Below, piece after piece: positions 18,364 through 28,082 of a stretch of 32,463 nucleotides of DNA (its first letter is position 1; every line of letters begins with the position of its first letter). The position numbers and the translations under genes were made by a program. The stretch is from Escherichia coli (GTDB lineage: Bacteria; Pseudomonadota; Gammaproteobacteria; Enterobacterales; Enterobacteriaceae), in NCBI RefSeq assembly GCF_003334385.1, contig NZ_QOWN01000051.1; one strand, given 5' to 3'. A model generated the notes under the pieces. The model searched no databases and was not told where the DNA came from. It saw only the letters and a list, made by a program, of their open reading frames with translations.

Positions 18364-18889
18364 AACTAATACTCCATTACTTCATGCCCATTTATGCCCG
18401 ATGTTTCCCCCCCACCGGGGGATCAATCATCAATAAATATGGCGTTCTTTTTTAATTGGCTAGCAACATACCCCCCCTCATTTGTATGACAAATGATAAT
18501 CTTTCATCCAAACGTCAAATGCAATAACTAATTTTATTTCTTTCGGCATCGCTCACATTTTATGGGGAAATCGACGATCATTTTTGGCATAAGAAATCCA
18601 TTTAAAAATGGCTACATCCCTTATACCTATTCAGAGCTACTTATTCAGGGGTTATTGAGATATACACTGATGGTGTACAAAAAAATCACCGACAATAATC
18701 ACGTATCAAGTAATAGTCGGGATTTTATTTAATTGAAGCAATTTAGTTTGCATTTTTATTTAAAAACTGAGCTAGAGTCCATCAGAAAAAATATATAAAG
18801 CCCAAACCACCGTTGGAAATAGAAATAGTTGAAAGGCTCACAACTCCCGGAATGCGGATTATCTTTGCCCTGATTTCTGGCGGTTTTAT

Positions 18890-19744
18890 TCAGGGTGCAA
18901 GCTGTCTGACCCTTTCCCGATATTCTCCCGGGGTACAACCAAACTCGCGGACAAACGCCTTGTGAAAAGATGATTCACTGGCATAGCCTACTGACTCAGC
19001 GATCACCACAACAGGGAGCGTTTCCCGGGAAAACATCTGGGCCGCTATTTGTAGACGCAACTTTGTTAATACAGCCAGCGGCGTGGTTCCGGAAACATCA
19101 CGGAAAAGCTGGGCAAAACTTGCCCGGGACATGTGAGCGATGCTGGCCAGCGATTCGACGGTCCAGGCGTGTCCTGGCATTTCCAGCATTTGCTGTATTA
19201 CCGCACCAAGACGTGGATGCAGAAGCAAACTGAGAATGTTTTTCTCAGTATTAACCTGTGCAATCCACTCACGCACCGCGAGGGTAAAGAATGTAGCGCA
19301 GATCTGGCTACACAGTGCATCCACTCCCGGCATTGCCGATCTGGATTCCTGTTGTAAAAACGGGATCGCCTCCCTCAGCCAGTTATATTCCACGCTGTGG
19401 TTAACCGGTGCTAAAAACAGCGTTTCCGGCAAAGACGTTAAAAAATAACGCGCCGAATGTTGCAACCGAAGAGTGCCGCAGACAATACAGGTCGATTCAT
19501 TATCGACATGACTCAGGCGATGAGCTGAATTTTGTGGTAGCAGGACCACATTTCCCGGGCGTAATGTAAAAATCTCCCCCGTCGGCATTTCCAGCTTCGC
19601 CGCTCCTTGCGTTAACGCATGCCAACGAATAACCGATAATTCCCCGGCACCATGTGGAAGCTGCCAGTCACTTCCTAACACGCAATTCTTATCGATCGTT
19701 CCTTGTGGAGCGTTAAGCATCAACAAACGGCTAAGGGCATCCAT
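18890..19744 (-). CDS. rclR: AraC-family redox-sensing activator of the reactive-chlorine-stress operon (284 aa)
   Basis: C-terminal AraC-type HTH; N-terminal cysteines at about positions 21 and 89, matching the redox-sensing Cys pair I recall for RclR; divergent from rclA. Confidence 0.9.
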   Translation of the reverse strand: MDALSRLLMLNAPQGTIDKNCVLGSDWQLPHGAGELSVIRWHALTQGAAKLEMPTGEIFTLRPGNVVLLPQNSAHRLSHVDNESTCIVCGTLRLQHSARYFLTSLPETLFLAPVNHSVEYNWLREAIPFLQQESRSAMPGVDALCSQICATFFTLAVREWIAQVNTEKNILSLLLHPRLGAVIQQMLEMPGHAWTVESLASIAHMSRASFAQLFRDVSGTTPLAVLTKLRLQIAAQMFSRETLPVVVIAESVGYASESSFHKAFVREFGCTPGEYRERVRQLAP

Positions 19745-19969
19745 ATCAGACTCCTGAGTGGTTTTTGATTACAAACACCAACAATCTTAGTAAATAACTA
19801 ATCTAATACCATCAAATAGTTAATCATGATTTTTGTTTTGTGATTCTGATTAAGAAAAAGAAAATATCAGACGATAAGACAAAATATCAAGCGTTGTGAA
19901 GAAATGTTATTTGCTCTTTTGCGTCTATAGTCATGATGTCAAATGAACGCGTTTCGACAGGAAATCATC

Positions 19970-21295
19970 ATGAATAAATATCAGGCAGTGATTATTGGTT
20001 TTGGCAAGGCTGGAAAAACATTAGCCGTCACGCTGGCAAAAGCAGGTTGGCGAGTGGCTCTCATCGAACAATCAAATGCAATGTATGGCGGGACCTGTAT
20101 TAATATCGGCTGCATCCCAACCAAAACATTGGTTCATGACGCACAGCAGCACACAGATTTTGTCCGTGCCATACAGCGTAAAAATGAAGTGGTTAATTTT
20201 TTACGTAATAAGAATTTTCATAATCTTGCGGATATGCCCAATATCGACGTGATCGACGGCCAGGCGGAGTTTATCAATAATCATAGCCTGCGTGTTCATC
20301 GGCCTGAGGGAAATCTGGAAATTCATGGCGAGAAAATTTTTATTAATACCGGTGCACAAACCGTGGTTCCGCCAATTCCTGGAATTACCACCACGCCAGG
20401 AGTATATGACAGCACCGGATTACTTAATCTAAAAGAATTGCCTGGGCATTTAGGTATTTTGGGCGGCGGATATATTGGCGTTGAGTTCGCCTCTATGTTC
20501 GCTAATTTTGGCAGCAAGGTAACCATTTTAGAAGCAGCTTCGCTGTTTTTGCCTCGGGAAGATCGGGATATTGCTGATAATATCGCGACGATTTTACGCG
20601 ATCAGGGCGTCGATATTATCCTCAATGCCCATGTGGAGCGAATCAGTCACCATGAAAATCAAGTGCAAGTGCATAGCGAGCACGCCCAACTGGCGGTGGA
20701 TGCACTGTTAATAGCTTCCGGTCGTCAACCGGCTACCGCTTCGTTACATCCAGAAAATGCCGGTATCGCAGTAAACGAGCGCGGGGCAATTGTCGTTGAC
20801 AAGCGATTACATACCACCGCAGACAATATTTGGGCGATGGGAGATGTTACCGGCGGGCTGCAATTTACTTACATATCACTGGATGATTACCGCATTGTAC
20901 GTGATGAGTTACTGGGTGAAGGCAAACGTAGTACTGATGATCGGAAAAATGTGCCTTATTCCGTATTTATGACACCGCCCCTGTCCAGGGTTGGTATGAC
21001 AGAAGAACAAGCCAGAGAGAGTGGTGCTGATATTCAGGTGGTGACATTGCCTGTAGCTGCAATTCCGCGTGCCAGAGTGATGAATGATACTCGTGGGGTA
21101 TTAAAAGCGATTGTTGATAATAAAACCCAACGTATGTTAGGGGCATCACTGCTGTGTGTTGACTCCCACGAGATGATCAATATAGTGAAAATGGTGATGG
21201 ATGCCGGGCTGCCTTATAGCATATTACGCGATCAGATATTTACTCATCCGTCGATGAGCGAATCACTCAATGATCTATTTTCATTAGTCAAATAA
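19970..21295 (+). CDS. rclA: Pyridine nucleotide-disulfide oxidoreductase family flavoprotein (441 aa)
   Basis: N-terminal FAD dinucleotide-binding motif (VIIGFGKAGK) and redox-active CxxxxC (GGTCINIGCIP). Start chosen at MNKYQAVIIGFG with an upstream GGA-rich RBS. Confidence 0.9.
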   Translation: MNKYQAVIIGFGKAGKTLAVTLAKAGWRVALIEQSNAMYGGTCINIGCIPTKTLVHDAQQHTDFVRAIQRKNEVVNFLRNKNFHNLADMPNIDVIDGQAEFINNHSLRVHRPEGNLEIHGEKIFINTGAQTVVPPIPGITTTPGVYDSTGLLNLKELPGHLGILGGGYIGVEFASMFANFGSKVTILEAASLFLPREDRDIADNIATILRDQGVDIILNAHVERISHHENQVQVHSEHAQLAVDALLIASGRQPATASLHPENAGIAVNERGAIVVDKRLHTTADNIWAMGDVTGGLQFTYISLDDYRIVRDELLGEGKRSTDDRKNVPYSVFMTPPLSRVGMTEEQARESGADIQVVTLPVAAIPRARVMNDTRGVLKAIVDNKTQRMLGASLLCVDSHEMINIVKMVMDAGLPYSILRDQIFTHPSMSESLNDLFSLVK

Positions 21296-21403
21296 ACTCA
21301 AAATCAGACGCCAGAACAAATATTCTGGCGTCTCAGAGAAAAGAATCTTATTAATTCTCTGTTACTCTATAACTTCTTAATCACTTCATTGATGGTATTT
21401 TAT

Positions 21404-21640
21404 ATGTTTAAAAAATCTGTTTTATTTGCAACACTATTATCTGGCGTTATGGCATTTTCCACCAATGCAGATGATAAAATAATTCTGAAACATATCAGCG
21501 TCTCGTCAGTATCAGCATCACCGACAGTTCTGGAGGATACCATTGCTGATATAGCCAGAAAATATAATGCTTCATCCTGGAAAGTCACATCGATGCGAAT
21601 TGATAATAATTCAACCGCAACAGCAGTATTGTATAAATAA
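21404..21640 (+). CDS. rclB: Small periplasmic DUF1471 (YdgH/BhsA-like) protein (78 aa)
   Basis: Signal-peptide-like N-terminus MFKKSVLFATLLSGVMAFSTNA; start chosen at MFKK. Confidence 0.85.
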   Translation: MFKKSVLFATLLSGVMAFSTNADDKIILKHISVSSVSASPTVLEDTIADIARKYNASSWKVTSMRIDNNSTATAVLYK

Positions 21641-21651
21641 GGATGTTCACA

Positions 21652-22245
21652 ATGGAAAAATACCTGCACCTGTTAAGTCGGGGAGATAAAATTGGCCTGA
21701 CATTGATTCGTCTGAGTATTGCAATTGTTTTTATGTGGATTGGGTTATTAAAGTTTGTCCCTTACGAGGCAGACAGCATTACACCATTCGTCGCAAACAG
21801 TCCACTAATGTCGTTCTTTTATGAACACCCGGAAGACTATAAACAGTATCTGACTCACGAAGGCGAATACAAACCAGAAGCAAGGGCATGGCAAACGGCC
21901 AATAATACCTATGGTTTTTCCAACGGTCTTGGCGTCGTGGAGGTGATTATTGCTCTGCTGGTTTTGGCTAATCCTGTCAATCGCTGGTTAGGTTTATTGG
22001 GAGGACTGATGGCATTTACCACGCCGCTGGTAACACTCTCATTTTTAATCACCACCCCGGAGGCATGGGTACCCGCATTGGGTGACGCTCATCATGGTTT
22101 CCCTTATTTATCCGGTGCTGGTCGCCTGGTATTGAAAGATACTCTGATGCTGGCAGGTGCAGTCATGATAATGGCAGATTCGGCGCGGGAAATTCTTAAA
22201 CAACGCAGTAATGAATCCAGTTCAACGTTAAAAACTGAATATTGA
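21652..22245 (+). CDS. rclC: Inner-membrane protein of the rcl operon (197 aa)
   Basis: Multi-TM hydrophobic ORF immediately after rclB; start chosen at MEKYLHLL. Confidence 0.85.
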   Translation: MEKYLHLLSRGDKIGLTLIRLSIAIVFMWIGLLKFVPYEADSITPFVANSPLMSFFYEHPEDYKQYLTHEGEYKPEARAWQTANNTYGFSNGLGVVEVIIALLVLANPVNRWLGLLGGLMAFTTPLVTLSFLITTPEAWVPALGDAHHGFPYLSGAGRLVLKDTLMLAGAVMIMADSAREILKQRSNESSSTLKTEY

Positions 22246-22403
22246 TAATCCGAACACTGTCTGTTGTTCACTTTTTCAGGCGTCAGGCCCCCTTTCTGAT
22301 GATGAAGCCTGACGCCATATTACCGGAGATATGACAGAGTGAAGATCAATATCACTCCCTGTTAAAAGGTTTTTGTCGTCTTAGGTAAAATACATGATTA
22401 ATA

Positions 22404-22571
22404 TCAATCATGTATTTTTACAGCAAGACAACCACGAACAAATTCAGGATTAAAATGTTTTACCGACTCCCCAACATAACCCAAATCAAGCGAACTAATT
22501 TGTGCCATTTCTTTATCTGTCAGTGAGAAATCGATTTTTGATGGGCATCTGCAATACTCTGAAGCAGACTA
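22404..22571 (-). pseudogene. C-terminal remnant of an aldo-keto-reductase-like gene (ykgQ-like pseudogene)
   Basis: Hand translation of the minus strand gives ...KIDFSLTDKEMAQISSLDLGYVGESVKHFNPEFVRGCLAVKIHD*, resembling AKR C-termini; an in-frame stop sits immediately upstream and another frame carries a further fragment (...VCFVVPENREV...), so the gene is disrupted. Confidence 0.4.
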
Positions 22572-22834
22572 TACGGAAAATTCCACTGTCAGTCCCTCCA
22601 TTAGGCATGAACAATGAGTCTACGTTAAAACGTAACCTCAAAGTAGTATGTGGATTTTGATATCACTTATGCAAAAAATTCATTAATAATGTAGGACTGA
22701 AACCTCTCTATTTTCGGGGACAACGAAGCAGACGCTACCAGTGCTTTTGCCTTCGCCCTTGCTATTTTTGATACACTTAGGGCCCAGGGTATAACGAAAA
22801 TGTGCGATATGACAAAGAATTAACGGAGAATGAG

Positions 22835-23686
22835 ATGATCAGGCAGAATATTCTACAGCAGCTCCTGGAGTGGATTGAGTGCAATCTTGAGCACCCTATT
22901 TCAATCGAAGATATCGCACAGAAATCTGGCTACAGCAGACGCAACATCCAGCTTCTGTTCCGAAATTTCATGCATGTGCCTTTGGGAGAATACATTCGCA
23001 AACGAAGGCTTTGTCGTGCCGCCATTCTTGTCCGGCTCACCGCGAAATCTATGCTTGATATTGCACTCTCTTTGCATTTTGATTCACAGCAGTCATTCAG
23101 CCGCGAATTTAAAAAGTTATTCGGCTGCTCTCCCCGTGAATACCGCCACCGTGATTATTGGGATCTCGCAAATATCTTCCCTTCTTTTTTAATACGTCAA
23201 CAGCAAAAGACGGAGTGTAGATTAATCAACTTTCCTGAGACACCTATTTTTGGCAACTCATTTAAATATGACATTGAAGTGTCGAATAAATCACCGGATG
23301 AAGAAGTCAAACTACGACGTCATCATTTAGCCAGATGTATGAAGAATTTTAAGACGGATATCTATTTCGTTTCCACGTTTGAACCGTCAACAAAATCGGT
23401 CGATTTGCTCACGGTTGAAACTTTTGCTGGTACGGTATGTGAATATGCTGACATGCCAAAAGAGTGGACAACGACCCGAGGACTTTATGCCTCTTTCCGT
23501 TATGAAGGAAACTGGGAAAATTATCCTGACTGGGTGCGTAACATCTATCTGATAGAGTTACCTGCCAGGGGGTTAGCCAGAGTGAACGGCAGCGATATTG
23601 AGCGCTTTTATTACAATGAAGATTTCGTAGAAAAGGATGGCAATGATGTTGTTTGCGAAATTTTTATTCCCGTTCGTCCGGTTTAG
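22835..23686 (+). CDS. ykgA: AraC-family regulator with N-terminal HTH and C-terminal GyrI-like effector domain, apparently full length (283 aa)
   Basis: AraC-type HTH near the N-terminus (ISIEDIAQKSGYSRRNIQLLFRNF...FSREFKKLFGCSPREYR). Start chosen at MIRQNILQQLLEW. Confidence 0.8.
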   Translation: MIRQNILQQLLEWIECNLEHPISIEDIAQKSGYSRRNIQLLFRNFMHVPLGEYIRKRRLCRAAILVRLTAKSMLDIALSLHFDSQQSFSREFKKLFGCSPREYRHRDYWDLANIFPSFLIRQQQKTECRLINFPETPIFGNSFKYDIEVSNKSPDEEVKLRRHHLARCMKNFKTDIYFVSTFEPSTKSVDLLTVETFAGTVCEYADMPKEWTTTRGLYASFRYEGNWENYPDWVRNIYLIELPARGLARVNGSDIERFYYNEDFVEKDGNDVVCEIFIPVRPV

Positions 23687-23825: not shown

Positions 23826-26800
23826 TTATGGCATCTCCTCCTCGCCATTTTCAGTCTCTGCAGCAACGGCGTTAATTGTCACCTTCACAGGCGTCATTTC
23901 GTACCCGCCATACGTCAGTGCGTTGAATGTGAACGTATAGACACCTGGCTTGCTGGTACTAAATGTACGCGTGATTTTCCCACCTGAGAAATGGTCAGCC
24001 TTCGACGGCAGGAATTGATAATCCTTCTCCGTCACTCCTTCCGGAGCCTCAATGTCGACCCACATACTTCCTCCTACGGGATTGACTCCCGCCATCAGGG
24101 TAACCGTCATTGTTGCAGTAGTCTTCCCGTCCGCCACCAGAGAATCTACACGTTCTGGAGATGCGGCGAGCACCGCGTTTTTATCATCCGCGACGAATTT
24201 AGATTCAGCAGTTTTCGTCGATACCTGACCGTTGGCCTGTTCCACTTTCGCCGTGAGTGTATATGTCGCTGCGATAGTGGTAGAGCCGGTGAAAACAGCC
24301 TGTCCTTGCTCATTAGTTTTCGCCGTCCCTTTAGGATCCAGAACTAAATTTTCCGAGCTGGCAGTCAGCGTCACGTCGCTATCCTTCAACAGGTTGTTAT
24401 TGGCATCAGTCACCGTAACTTTATACGTCTGTTTGGTTTTGCCATCCGCCACTGCACGGTTGCCAATCACCTCAATACTGGAGATGGTCGCCGTAGTCTT
24501 ATCGGCCACAAACGTTACAGACTGCGCATTCGAAGGCTGGTCATTTCCTGCCGACGCCGTGATCTCATACGTTCCGGCAGTCACGGAGACCACTTTCAGT
24601 TCCGCTTTACCCTCCTTGTCGGCGTTCACCATGATATTACCGTCTGCAAGCGGTTTGACGCCCCGAGGCAGATTAAAGACGACCACAGCGCCAGGCAGAA
24701 GGTTGCCGTATTGATCCTTAACCGTTGCCGTCAGCGTAAAGGCATCATTGTCGTTTGCCACTTTTGGCGTGCTGCCATCAACCTCCAGGGTCGCCTGACC
24801 GGTACTGAAATCCGCCTTGAATTTCACCGTAACCGTCTTCTGAGCATTATTCACTGAGGCCGTGATGCTGTGTTCCCCCGCAACCGTTGACATAAGCTCA
24901 ATGTCCACTTTCCCTGCCGCATTGGTTGTTACTGTATTCCCCGTCTTGCTGGTCACACCCTGCGGTAAAGTCAGCGTAACTTCTTGCCCCTGCAACGGGT
25001 TACCATAGCTGTCCACGACGGTCAGGGTTATCTGGTTAGCAGACTGTCCATTAGCCAGTTGGTTATTAACCTTCACTGTCATATCACGAATCTCAGCCTT
25101 AGATGCGTCACCTGCAACGTTCAGCACCAGTGGCTGAGCAACGGCATTTTGGCCGTTCACTCGCGGCATCACAGACAACTGACCCGCGGCAGATCCCAGC
25201 GTTAAGGTCGCCACGTAGACCCCATTACCTTTCTCTGTCCAGTTTCCTGCTGAAGGACGCTCACTCCCCGTGCTGGCGGCACCGCTAAACACTGGTGCAT
25301 CTGGCTTCAGCCCGGTGACCGGGTTCCCGTACGCATCCTTCACGGTGAAGGTGAGTTCCGTCGTCATTTTGACGGTCGGAGCCTTATTGTCCGCAACAAG
25401 CGTAGAGTTCGCTGATGACATCTCTCCGGCGATGACCGTCAACTGCGCGGCTTCGGTGGCTGCTGGCTGGCCGTTGAAGAGCGGCATGACACGAAGCTCG
25501 CCCGTCTTTCCGCCTGTAGTTAACGTAGCAACATAGGAACAGTCACCTTTTTCGGTCCAACTGGAAACGGTCGCCCCTTCAGAGGCGGTCCCCGTCAAAC
25601 TTGCCGACAACGAAAGACCACTGATAGTGTTGCCATGTGCATCTTTTGCAATAAGCGTCACGGTTGTGCTTTCGCCGGCTTTTACGTGATCTTCTGCGAC
25701 AGAGACTTTCGACTGGTTTGAAGATAACGCATCAGCCACCACGGTTACTTTTGCCGCATTTGCTGCCGCATCCTGTCCATTTAGCTTCGGCATAACTTCT
25801 AATTCACCCGCCGTAGAGCCGAGAGTAATCTGCGCAGTCCACGTCCCATCACCATTATTTGTCCAGCCAGATGCCGTAGAACCTACAGCAGCGGCACCCG
25901 CTAATGACGGCGCTTCCGGCGTGAGGCTGGTCACAGGGTTGTCATAGGCATCTTTTGCCGTCCAGATTGCCGTAACTGTACCGCCAACCACCGGTTTATC
26001 AGGATTCAGGGTGATGGACGAATGTGCTGCATCAAGCGGACCGGCAACAAACTTCAGCGTTTGTTGTAATGTGCCCAGCTGATACTGCTCGCTGAAAGCA
26101 CGCACAACAACGTTTCCGGCACGGGTCGAAGAAACCGTGGCGCTGTAAACGCCTGGTTTTATTTCCGAAATGGCACCAACGGTTACACCATTAGTGTCTT
26201 GCGGAACAAATCGCAAGCGGCTGGCTTCTCCCGTCACCGGATTACCCTCGGAGTCCACCGCAGTCAACGTCAACGTATAGGCTTGCTGACCATCAGCAAC
26301 CACATCACCTGACGGCTCGTTAGCGCTCAGGGTGGAGTTTGCCACATCCATCATCGTGGCCCGCAGTTCTGCAGTGACGGTTTTGCTCATGCCATCAACG
26401 CTAACAGTAATCGTTGCCTCACCTGACTGCGTTCCGGTAGTAAAGACAGACTGATACACCCCTGCTTCAGTTTCGGTGAACTCACCCAGTGTTGGCTTTG
26501 CCTGTGATTTAGTGGCCTTCAGGGAACGAGTCACAATATTTCCAGCCGGTTTGAAGGCTAGTTCAGTCTTGATCTGATCTTTCATGCCCGTGACTGGCTG
26601 CCCCTCGGCGTCGCGCAGAGACAGCACCAGCGGTCTTTGCTCATTACCGTTAGCAAGCATTTGAATACGGCTCTGACCGTCAAGCGTTAACGCCGTGCGA
26701 TCGGCGCTCATACCTGCTCCGGTAATGACCACCTCTGTCTGCACGCGTTTTGAGGCATTGCCTTTGTTATCGTAGGCAACCGCAGAAATCGCATAATAAT

Positions 26801-28082
26801 TGTCTTTGCCTGGACGATAAGCCGGGAGCGTTACTTGCCACTGACTACCCTGACCGGTAATTTTGCCACCCTCAGCCAGTAATGACGGCGCTTCCCACTG
26901 CACATTTTTCAGTCCGTGAGTTGCTTTGCTGACCACAAGCCCCAGGGAAAGTGTCTGACCACCCTTACCTTCAATACGTTCAGGCAGAGCAATACGGATC
27001 ACTTCAGATTTGCGGTACTCAAGAACGATGTTGTTATTACGCTCAACCAGGTCATAGCGGCTGCCTGCCAGTACCCGACGCTCGCGAATGCTGTCTGTAT
27101 CGAGTTGTTTCGCCAGAGGTTCGCCAATCCGATAATTAACTTCCAGGCCAAAGCGAGTGTCATTCTCACCACTCTTGCCCTGCTTATGCCCGGCGCTCAG
27201 TGTCAGAAGAGGCACTGGCGTATAGGTCACCTCGGCAGAAATAGCATGCGGGTCTTTCTGGCGCTTATCTTTACCAAACAGCCCGACTTCATCGCCATAA
27301 TACTGTTCATACATCAGGCTTGCGCCAAGCTGCGGCCAGGCGGGTAAATAGCCCTCAGCACGAATATCCCAGCCATTCGCCGGGCGTTCCTGATAATCCT
27401 CAATATCCGGCGATTTTTTCCAGCCAGAAGCCCGAATATAACCATTGGCGCTCAGTTTCAGATAATCGCGCCAGTATTCCGCACCAACACCAATGCGGGT
27501 ATGACTACGGGATAAATCATGATCGATAAAAGTATTCACCCCCGCCATCCAGTCATTTCCTGAAAAATGACGCCAGCCAAAACCAATATTTGACTGAGTA
27601 CGATCGTCTGTACGATGTATTGCCCCCTGAGTGAACAACATATTTGTCGGCGTATCATAAATCGGATAAAGCATTTCCAGCGAAGAATCCTTCAGCGAGA
27701 AATCTTTATCGACATTCAGTTTGACGCGCGCAGTACCATATTTCCCGAGCCACTCCTGTATTTCCTGGTTAGCTTTAGCTGTGGCCATTCCGGTAATAAA
27801 GTTACGTGTCGCATCGCTATCTGGCTGACTGCTTAAAAATGTCCCGGCATTTGCGGCAAACGACGCGACATTTTTCTCCACGTTATTATCAGCAGTTACC
27901 GTAGTATTTCCCATGCTCAACCGTGGCTGAACCGCATGCTGCGCACGTGCCGCCATTACTGGGGTAAAGGTGACAGCGAGTGGAAAAAGAACCTGAACAG
28001 AGATATTTGCCCACGCCACGCAGCGGGCCAGAACTGAATAACGAAATCGTGATTGTTTATGACCTGTTTTATAATGTGACAT
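23826..28082 (-). CDS. eaeH: Intimin/invasin-family inverse autotransporter adhesin (FdeC/EaeH type), full length, 1418 aa
   Basis: N-terminal signal-like segment, then a beta-barrel-sized region, then a long tail of tandem Ig-like modules with recurring WTEKGNGVYVATLTLGSAAGQLSVMPRVNGQ-type motifs and T/V/S-rich beta-strand composition. Uninterrupted here. Confidence 0.9.
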   Translation of the reverse strand: MSHYKTGHKQSRFRYSVLARCVAWANISVQVLFPLAVTFTPVMAARAQHAVQPRLSMGNTTVTADNNVEKNVASFAANAGTFLSSQPDSDATRNFITGMATAKANQEIQEWLGKYGTARVKLNVDKDFSLKDSSLEMLYPIYDTPTNMLFTQGAIHRTDDRTQSNIGFGWRHFSGNDWMAGVNTFIDHDLSRSHTRIGVGAEYWRDYLKLSANGYIRASGWKKSPDIEDYQERPANGWDIRAEGYLPAWPQLGASLMYEQYYGDEVGLFGKDKRQKDPHAISAEVTYTPVPLLTLSAGHKQGKSGENDTRFGLEVNYRIGEPLAKQLDTDSIRERRVLAGSRYDLVERNNNIVLEYRKSEVIRIALPERIEGKGGQTLSLGLVVSKATHGLKNVQWEAPSLLAEGGKITGQGSQWQVTLPAYRPGKDNYYAISAVAYDNKGNASKRVQTEVVITGAGMSADRTALTLDGQSRIQMLANGNEQRPLVLSLRDAEGQPVTGMKDQIKTELAFKPAGNIVTRSLKATKSQAKPTLGEFTETEAGVYQSVFTTGTQSGEATITVSVDGMSKTVTAELRATMMDVANSTLSANEPSGDVVADGQQAYTLTLTAVDSEGNPVTGEASRLRFVPQDTNGVTVGAISEIKPGVYSATVSSTRAGNVVVRAFSEQYQLGTLQQTLKFVAGPLDAAHSSITLNPDKPVVGGTVTAIWTAKDAYDNPVTSLTPEAPSLAGAAAVGSTASGWTNNGDGTWTAQITLGSTAGELEVMPKLNGQDAAANAAKVTVVADALSSNQSKVSVAEDHVKAGESTTVTLIAKDAHGNTISGLSLSASLTGTASEGATVSSWTEKGDCSYVATLTTGGKTGELRVMPLFNGQPAATEAAQLTVIAGEMSSANSTLVADNKAPTVKMTTELTFTVKDAYGNPVTGLKPDAPVFSGAASTGSERPSAGNWTEKGNGVYVATLTLGSAAGQLSVMPRVNGQNAVAQPLVLNVAGDASKAEIRDMTVKVNNQLANGQSANQITLTVVDSYGNPLQGQEVTLTLPQGVTSKTGNTVTTNAAGKVDIELMSTVAGEHSITASVNNAQKTVTVKFKADFSTGQATLEVDGSTPKVANDNDAFTLTATVKDQYGNLLPGAVVVFNLPRGVKPLADGNIMVNADKEGKAELKVVSVTAGTYEITASAGNDQPSNAQSVTFVADKTTATISSIEVIGNRAVADGKTKQTYKVTVTDANNNLLKDSDVTLTASSENLVLDPKGTAKTNEQGQAVFTGSTTIAATYTLTAKVEQANGQVSTKTAESKFVADDKNAVLAASPERVDSLVADGKTTATMTVTLMAGVNPVGGSMWVDIEAPEGVTEKDYQFLPSKADHFSGGKITRTFSTSKPGVYTFTFNALTYGGYEMTPVKVTINAVAAETENGEEEMP

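Follow-up and report, generated by a model that had tools for sequence, protein, structure and literature searches.

The DNA studied here is a window of 32,463 nucleotides (nt) from Escherichia coli (the whole stretch that was analysed, in which all positions below are counted), and its positions 18890-22245 are the chromosomal rclR/rclABC locus in the K-12 allele, a system that is already known and curated. Four open reading frames are found there, rclR on the minus strand and rclA, rclB and rclC on the plus strand (Table 1). The gene identities and orientation proposed by an earlier sequence-only reading were borne out by the reading frames themselves, by the RefSeq rcl annotation of the identical MG1655 segment, which maps onto all four of them, and by the NCBIfam equivalog cut-offs, which are passed by RclR, RclA, RclB and RclC alike. 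In a megablast search of complete E. coli genomes, positions 18700-22500 were 100% identical in DNA sequence, over their full length, to K-12 MG1655 and to many other strains, and at least 80% of this 3.8-kb stretch is held by 5047 of the 5426 genomes (~93%). Gene order, proteins and control region are all the same as in the rclR-rclABC locus of MG1655 (ykgD-ykgCIB), which is said to have been described by Parker et al. in 2013. We consider it very probable that the locus as a whole is best explained as this K-12-allele module together with an inferred operator, a second box and a partnership of RclB with RclC.

Table 1. Genes of the rclR/rclABC locus and predicted control elements, with positions in the window
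Feature	Position	Strand	Description
rclR (ykgD)	18890-19744	-	284-amino-acid AraC-family redox-sensing activator; open reading frame and MG1655 annotation
Divergent rclR-rclA control region	19745-19969	.	225 bp, 31% GC
Predicted RclR operator (box 1)	19863-19901	+	atatcAGACGATAAGACAAAATATCAAGCGTTGTGAAG; AGACG-N4-GACAA-N8-GCGT
Candidate -10 of PrclA	19926-19931	+	TATAGT, 57 nt after box start
rclA (ykgC)	19970-21295	+	441-amino-acid group-I flavoprotein disulfide reductase
RclR-box-like element (box 2)	21300-21338	+	caaaatcAGACGCCAGAACAAATATTCTGGCGTCTCAGAG; second match of the position weight matrix
Weak candidate -10 of a possible internal PrclB	21363-21368	+	TACTCT, 57 nt after box 2 start
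rclB (ykgI)	21404-21640	+	78-amino-acid DUF1471 / YdgH_BhsA-like periplasmic protein
rclC (ykgB)	21652-22245	+	197-amino-acid DUF417 inner-membrane protein

RclR scored 557 bits against NCBIfam model NF040475 (cut-off 400; residues 1-283 of 284). It combines an N-terminal Pfam Cupin_6 domain (6.4e-18, residues 2-162), for which no deposited structure was found, with a C-terminal HTH_18 domain, a double helix-turn-helix (1.1e-22, residues 199-278). Cysteines occur at positions 21, 86, 89, 145, 149 and 270. The redox-sensing AraC-type regulator with Cys21 and Cys89 that had been claimed is indeed present, and in a formal alignment both residues are kept by all of 16 further regulators, as distant as those of Pseudomonas and Novosphingobium, while Cys86, Cys145, Cys149 and Cys270 vary across the same set. 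The alignment comprised E. coli and three Salmonella lineages, two Proteus, two Pantoea, an Enterobacter plasmid, Citrobacter, a second Enterobacter, Hafnia, Yersinia, Serratia and Shimwellia, and also took in the rclC-adjacent regulators of Pseudomonas and Novosphingobium. Reactive chlorine species (PMC7464077) and hypothiocyanous acid (HOSCN; PMC9335216) oxidise this cysteine pair in the K-12 protein, which is identical, and it is through these two residues of RclR that hypochlorous acid (HOCl) or N-chlorotaurine raises rclABC 100- to >500-fold (PMC7464077). In the published work, RclR oxidised at this pair raises the transcription of rclA, rclB and rclC.

The product of the first divergent gene agrees with the flavoprotein disulfide reductase carrying a CxxxxC active site that had been proposed. 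RclA scored 870 bits against NF040477 (cut-off 740), corresponds over residues 1-441 to the crystal structure 6KGY/6KYY (E = 2.4e-296) and keeps the active site C43-INIG-C48 (GGTCINIGCIPTK), whose two cysteines are invariant in the aligned Salmonella, Proteus and Pantoea orthologues, the sole exception being a decayed plasmid copy. Neither the cysteine pair of the regulator nor the CxxxxC motif of the reductase, whose absence would count against the identification, is thus missing on alignment. RclA has been characterized as a Cu(II) reductase (PMC7527725) and, in later work, as a HOSCN reductase of high activity for which both C43 and C48 are required (PMC9335216). A cytoplasmic FAD/NAD(P)H enzyme, it reduces HOSCN through these cysteines, and Cu(II) as well. 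RclA has the fold of a flavoprotein disulfide reductase and the CxxxxC motif in common with MerA of Staphylococcus aureus, one of the Gram-positive HOSCN reductases of the RclA family; unlike RclA, these MerA-type reductases have no linkage to RclR, RclB or RclC. On the NCBIfam model for the hypothiocyanous acid reductase MerA, RclA reached 597 bits, under the cut-off of 650, and therefore we place it in a sister group of MerA and not among its members. Related solved structures include 8AJJ, 8AJK and 8UUB.

The region between rclR and rclA had been pointed out as AT-rich and as the likely place of an RclR operator, and its limits proved exact: it has 31% GC against 48.6% for the whole window, an AT-richness reached by only 2.3% of 225-bp windows. 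The further claim of several short direct repeats stood only in part. The repeat search gave six two-copy direct-repeat families, and the sole one that coincides with conservation across genera is the pair 19856-19875 / 19876-19895, with a spacing of 20 bp; the other families look like chance. Direct-repeat families D2-D6 and inverted repeats I1-I6 lie outside the conserved block and were dismissed on that account. A sigma-70 consensus scan of the divergent region was at chance level (13 sites, 12.3 expected) and did not find PrclA, and a terminator consensus scan was likewise at chance level. Within E. coli, variation does not exceed 3%, which is too low for phylogenetic footprinting; the strain polymorphisms gather in the rclR-proximal half of the region and largely spare the block described below.

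Comparison between genera was more informative. The rclR loci of Salmonella, Proteus and Pantoea were aligned with that of E. coli, and the seven rclR-rclA intergenic regions, from four genera, share a single conserved block, box 1, in which 15 of 20 columns are invariant across the four genera, against at most 4 in windows clear of the block. Its invariant core, AGACG..AAGACAAAA, lies at 19869-19884 and starts 100-106 nt before the rclA ATG in the aligned regions (131 nt in Hafnia and 146 nt in Yersinia), and GCGTTG at 19891-19896 is conserved in all aligned regions but that of Proteus. In E. coli the box can be read as two direct repeats 20 bp apart (ATATCAGACGAT / ATATCAAGCGTT). A metagenome scan with the pattern AGACGNNAAGACAAAAANNNNNGCGTT, written so as to leave out E. 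coli, returned 14 loci, and in 13 of them the motif lay between rclR and rclA homologues and pointed to rclA. In agreement, a position weight matrix (PWM) built without E. coli and scanned on both strands of the window had box 1 as its top match (19861, 32.9 bits). Loci from seven more genera were retrieved by means of RclC homologues, and the box was seen again beside rclR in Citrobacter, Hafnia, Yersinia, Shimwellia and Pseudomonas (core AGACTTATAGACAAAA), where it precedes whichever gene adjoins, be it rclA, rclB or rclC.

The block also keeps a fixed distance to a putative promoter. Of 14 box-promoter pairs, which come from ten genera and precede rclA, rclB or rclC, 12 have a -10-like hexamer 57±1 nt downstream from the start of the box. 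This hexamer is TATAGT in E. coli, TATACT in Salmonella and Citrobacter, TATCAT in Proteus, TAGAAT in Shimwellia and TATTAT in several others; Pantoea has the -10-like hexamer TAAGCT at +56. No -35 consensus was found in the compared box promoters, and PrclA of E. coli has no recognisable -35 (AATGTT/ATGTTA at 19903-19909). Since box 1 is the sole conserved block, is adjacent to rclR in 13 of the 14 metagenome loci and has a fixed spacing to the -10, we take 19863-19901 to be the predicted RclR operator, an asymmetric element of about 40 bp in what would be a class II position. This comparative block narrows the candidate operator from 225 bp to about 40 bp. The end of the box at the -35 position, the lack of a good -35 and the -10 at +57 together suggest class II activation, with the predicted RclR site extending from about -76 (core from -70) to -38.

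AraC bound at araI1-I2 is a class II activator of the AraC/XylS family, and so are RhaS and MelR. The predicted RclR operator resembles theirs in being asymmetric, about 40 bp long and abutted to a putative promoter with a poor -35, and, as at AraC class II operators, its direct-repeat half-sites are spaced by about two turns of the helix; such a pair, 20 bp apart in E. coli, would fit an RclR dimer joined via the cupin domain. Unlike the sugar-binding AraC, RclR has as its signal the oxidation of cysteines in Cupin_6, and its mode of binding is one that we infer. Two observations weigh against an operator of this kind: the 20-bp repeat is strong only in E. coli (19/28 positions, and 10-11/28 elsewhere), and the rclR-adjacent regions of Serratia and Enterobacter gave no PWM match, although a degenerate GAACGAAATGACAGG can be seen by eye in the latter. 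No RclR site or box sequence was found in the literature searched, outside of which lies the primary 2013 RclR paper, which may map the operator.

The same block could be read differently, as the core promoter of the divergent rclR gene or as the site of some other regulator, with no RclR operator in it. Indeed, its minus strand overlaps the sigma-70-like matches TTCACA-18-TATCGT and TTGATA-16/18, and in Pantoea it lies only ~38 nt from the rclR start codon, so that the rclR promoter must overlap it there. We nevertheless regard this as very improbable. The minus-strand hexamers are not conserved (TTCACA is replaced by TCCGCA in Salmonella and by GCCGTA in Pantoea), the block lies anywhere between 38 and ~125 nt from rclR but at a fixed 57±1 nt from the plus-strand -10, and the box is found again downstream of rclA, ahead of rclB or rclC, a place without any rclR promoter. 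The core-promoter reading was rejected as the principal one on these grounds. The role of operator and that of rclR promoter are compatible, and their overlap would give autoregulation of rclR.

One such downstream occurrence lies in the window itself. Box 2, whose element AGACGCCAGAACAAATATTCTGGCGTCTCAGAG begins 10 nt past the stop codon of rclA and 98 nt ahead of the ATG of rclB, was the second PWM match (21298, 14.8 bits), the next one having 8.7 bits. Shuffled windows gave 0.03 matches at its score, and the shuffled 140-nt rclA-rclB region reached it once in 10,000 (~1e-4). A box at the equivalent place scored 20.9 bits in Hafnia, and in Yersinia, which is without rclB, a box before rclC scored 28.6 bits; the equivalents in Salmonella and Citrobacter are recognisable and degenerate (ATACG…GACAAAT…GGCGT). 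A -10-like hexamer is found at +56/57 of the equivalents in all four genera, and in three of them, Salmonella, Citrobacter and Hafnia, a canonical intrinsic terminator separates the box from rclA. E. coli O139:H1 W13-16 has TATTAT at +57 together with an A-to-G change that moves box 2 toward the consensus. The clear boxes and the upstream terminators of other genera therefore suggest that rclBC may own an RclR-dependent promoter. Our reading of these comparisons is that rclBC would form a separate RclR-dependent unit in many Enterobacterales, that in the K-12 allele the internal promoter is probably weak at best and read-through from PrclA probably dominates, and that the chances of box 2 being functional in this strain are about evenly balanced.

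Several facts tell against an internal promoter. In this allele box 2 scores only 14.8 bits and is followed by a poor -10 (TACTCT), its equivalents in Salmonella and Citrobacter score about 0 with the PWM, and rclABC is treated as one operon in the literature (PMC9335216; PMC12096828). In addition, box 2 is also a hairpin with a perfect 11-bp stem at 21306-21333 (RNA fold z = -4.5), which could simply be an RNA 3'-end element. It is quite conceivable, with a probability a little short of one half, that box 2 is only this hairpin, marking or stabilising the 3' end of the rclA transcript, that its likeness to the box is due to ancestry or chance and that rclABC is a single unit; the closeness of the stem to the rclA stop codon, the weak -10, the lack of an upstream terminator in E. 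coli and the description of one operon all fit such an explanation. On the other hand, box 2 has no U-tract on the plus strand, the Hafnia and Yersinia boxes have their -10 at the expected place and form no hairpin, a true terminator already lies upstream of the box in Hafnia, Salmonella and Citrobacter, and in natural alleles of E. coli a better box goes with a better -10.

A separate promoter for rclBC can be set beside the gene content around rclR in other genera. In Proteus and Pantoea the locus is the divergent rclR-rclA pair only, while in an Enterobacter contig rclR is directly divergent from rclBC, without rclA. Yersinia has rclA-rclC without rclB, and no rclB remnant was found in the gap between the two genes. 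In Serratia rclR faces rclC-DUF302-rclA, in Shimwellia it faces rclC, and in Pseudomonas an RclR-like regulator is divergent from rclC, which is followed by a gene for a 72-amino-acid DUF2790 protein with a lipoprotein-like signal. Outside Enterobacteriaceae, RclC-type proteins with 50-79% identity were found in Pseudomonas, Massilia, Burkholderia, Rhizobium, Novosphingobium and Bacteroides. The distant RclC-type genes often adjoin an AraC-type regulator and redox genes, the latter being an RclA homologue in Bacteroides finegoldii, an AhpD-like gene in Rhizobium and Novosphingobium and wrbA in Burkholderia. The pairing of RclR with RclC is seen in Pseudomonas, while Novosphingobium and Bacteroides offer looser parallels to it, and a small secreted partner occurs along with RclC, a DUF1471 protein in enterics and a DUF2790 protein in Pseudomonas, which parallels RcrA with RcrB in uropathogenic E. 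coli (UPEC). A known relative is the RclR-RclX system of Pseudomonas aeruginosa, in which an RclR homologue responsive to HOCl and HOSCN adjoins its target gene, as in E. coli (PMC7950407; PMC9335216); the target RclX is an AhpD-like peroxiredoxin, instead of RclABC. Taken at even chances, the RclR regulon is modular, the box standing separately ahead of rclA and of rclBC or rclC, and the pairing of RclR and RclC with a small secreted partner is wider than the literature states.

The two small downstream proteins are those that the sequence-only reading had described as a periplasmic DUF1471 protein and a membrane protein. RclB scored 152.7 bits against NF040474 (cut-off 100), with weaker matches to YhcN and BhsA; it has an N-terminal signal peptide (…AFSTNA/DD) with hydrophobic residues 6-20 and no cysteine, and its orthologues carry PF07338. 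RclC scored 341.7 bits against NF040476 (cut-off 275) and covers the whole Pfam DUF417 model (1.2e-80). Its hydropathy profile has three clear hydrophobic segments and one weaker, there is no cysteine, and the loops 33-87 and 134-157 are long, rich in Tyr, Trp and His and predicted to face the periplasm. A match of RclC to Pfam DoxX_3 was non-significant (E = 0.082), and a DoxX-like quinone protein was rejected. The rclC gene has the Shine-Dalgarno sequence AAGGA 8 nt before the ATG at 21652; an in-frame ATG at 21643 would lengthen the protein by 3 residues.

The roles of RclB and RclC had been called poorly defined and this still holds: Meredith & Gray (2025), who put an outer-membrane-porin model of RclB to the test and discarded it, conclude that the mechanisms of both proteins "remain to be determined" (PMC12096828). 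Mutants in rclB and rclC are HOSCN-sensitive (PMC9335216; PMC12096828), and the phenotypes of ΔrclB and ΔrclC are similar (PMC12096828). Because the pairing of a DUF1471 with a DUF417 protein recurs in the rcrARB cluster of UPEC, we think it most likely that the two Rcl proteins work jointly on the periplasmic side of the inner membrane, by a mode of action related to that of RcrB and yet distinct from it. In strain CFT073, rcrA is annotated by RefSeq as DUF1471 and rcrB as DUF417 (retrieved CFT073 stretch 42496-43826), and pairwise BLASTP gave E = 1e-5 for RclB with RcrA and E = 1e-9, at 25% identity, for RclC with RcrB. Like rcl, rcrARB (CFT073 c3599-c3601) is oxidant-induced, is under a cysteine-oxidation sensor and encodes a small secreted protein, RcrA, and an inner-membrane protein, RcrB. 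Unlike rcl, its regulator is a TetR-family repressor, where RclR is an AraC-family activator, and it has no RclA-type reductase. RcrB itself is a short DUF417 protein of 142 amino acids without the two loop insertions of RclC, and it protects against HOCl and not against HOSCN.

According to a preprint from 2026, the quenching of HOCl by RcrB takes place on the periplasmic side, depends on glutathione and needs the periplasm-facing residues Lys43, Trp44, Trp60 and Lys128, which are K33, W34, W50 and K118 in RefSeq numbering (bioRxiv 10.64898/2026.03.12.711259). Some findings weigh against the proposed action of RclB and RclC. RclC keeps two of the four essential residues (K34 and the Lys of VLKD), and in the pairwise alignment both Trp are lost, Phe35 and Pro51 being in their place; RclC and RcrB do not cross-complement, RclC failing to complement ΔrcrB (PMC10312555). 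Deletion of rclB leaves the periplasm unsensitised to HOSCN (PMC12096828), which counts against simple quenching there. An RcrB-type HOCl quencher was rejected for RclC, since the essential Trp residues are not conserved. In this sense, RclC may be similar to RcrB in its working, yet its sequence would place it outside the RcrB subgroup. The term DUF1471 was not found in the searchable literature of the Dahl laboratory, and RcrA is unmentioned in the 2025 paper of the Gray laboratory. The recurring DUF1471 and DUF417 pair may therefore be under-appreciated.

The name hypochlorous-acid resistance module, as the sequence-only reading had it, holds as regards HOCl induction and sensitivity, but the label is dated, RclA being mainly a HOSCN reductase (PMC9335216). 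It seems to us unlikely that the module is primarily a system of resistance to HOCl. According to a paper that summarises the 2013 work of Parker et al., RclR was found to be specific for reactive chlorine species, HOCl and N-chlorotaurine induced rclB 100- to 500-fold, and MG1655 single mutants were more sensitive to HOCl (PMC7464077). Against this, HOSCN induces rclA >256-fold and is reduced by RclA at high activity, and the protection against HOCl was called modest (PMC9335216); UPEC ΔrclC had no HOCl phenotype, and neutrophil killing was unchanged in ΔrclABC (PMC10312555). RclB and RclC each contribute to the resistance to HOSCN and to HOCl.

Copies of rclA also circulate on plasmids. A fragment with rclA only (window 19916-21446), ~98.8% identical, is present on >200 plasmids of Escherichia, Klebsiella, Salmonella, Enterobacter, Shigella and Hafnia, tet(X4) and IncHI2 plasmids included, and is bracketed by ends of the insertion sequence (IS) IS1 (retrieved plasmid stretches 6001-7532 and 6001-7505). 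Among the matches listed, all that reach the left end stop at window 19915/19916, so that neither rclR nor the RclR box is part of the fragment. With the IS1 end comes a TTGGCA that stands precisely 17 nt ahead of the native TATAGT, and a hybrid promoter that is constitutive and independent of RclR is thereby predicted. The IS1-rclA junction was present in at least 213 plasmid records, and no description of such a cassette was found in the literature searched. The decayed copy mentioned above is on Enterobacter cloacae plasmid pM12X01451 (retrieved stretch 4283-4840), where an intact rclR stands beside a truncated rclA with both active-site cysteines changed to Tyr (GGTYINIGYIP) and the adjacent box is degenerate (AGACGATTAAACAAAA); this copy of the module, carried by an IncF plasmid, seems to be in decay. 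In Salmonella 4,[5],12:i:- (NZ_CP149222.1, retrieved stretch 3463-4785) the rclA frame ends after 209 amino acids. This 'plasmid' record looks like a chromosome fragment, and the short frame may reflect a frameshift, an error in sequencing or a genuine pseudogene. A FAD-dependent oxidoreductase gene with a stretch of ~70% DNA identity to rclA is carried by 58 Lactococcus plasmids, many from dairy strains, and by a Streptococcus infantarius plasmid from fermented camel milk. As milk has a lactoperoxidase/HOSCN system, these genes could be plasmid-borne HOSCN reductases.

The flanks of the locus differ from those of MG1655, in which IS3 splits ykgA and eaeH. Both are whole in the window, ykgA as an AraC-family gene of 294 amino acids (22802-23686) and the eaeH-like gene as an inverse autotransporter of 1418 amino acids (23826-28082). 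The IS3-free flanks therefore indicate a strain other than MG1655 that bears the K-12 rcl allele. Between rclC and ykgA, 34 nt past the rclC stop, a 10-bp GC-rich inverted repeat with an 18-nt loop (GGCGTCAGGC … GCCTGACGCC) occupies 22279-22316; no T-run accompanies it on either strand, and the terminator scan did not call it. An aldo/keto reductase pseudogene remnant is annotated at ~22404-22532. In several E. coli genomes the 3.8-kb stretch is split in two by an IS insertion, which is ISVsa5 (IS10-like) in the K-12 derivatives ER3413, ER2796 and ET12567 and in the wild isolate RM10410, and IS3 or IS30 in two further isolates. Strain MC4100 is without the whole rcl region (PMC9600549).

The locus as such adds nothing new, being named and curated and having had its structure and biochemistry already studied. 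A 40-bp operator prediction in place of a 225-bp region could be useful to the field, and so could the finding of an IS1-bracketed, RclR-independent rclA in circulation on >200 Enterobacterales plasmids. A separate rclBC promoter, if true, would affect the reading of polar effects in ΔrclA strains and of the near-identical transcriptomes of ΔrclA, ΔrclB and ΔrclC. Finally, the recurring DUF1471 and DUF417 pair offers a lead into the mechanism of RclB and RclC.

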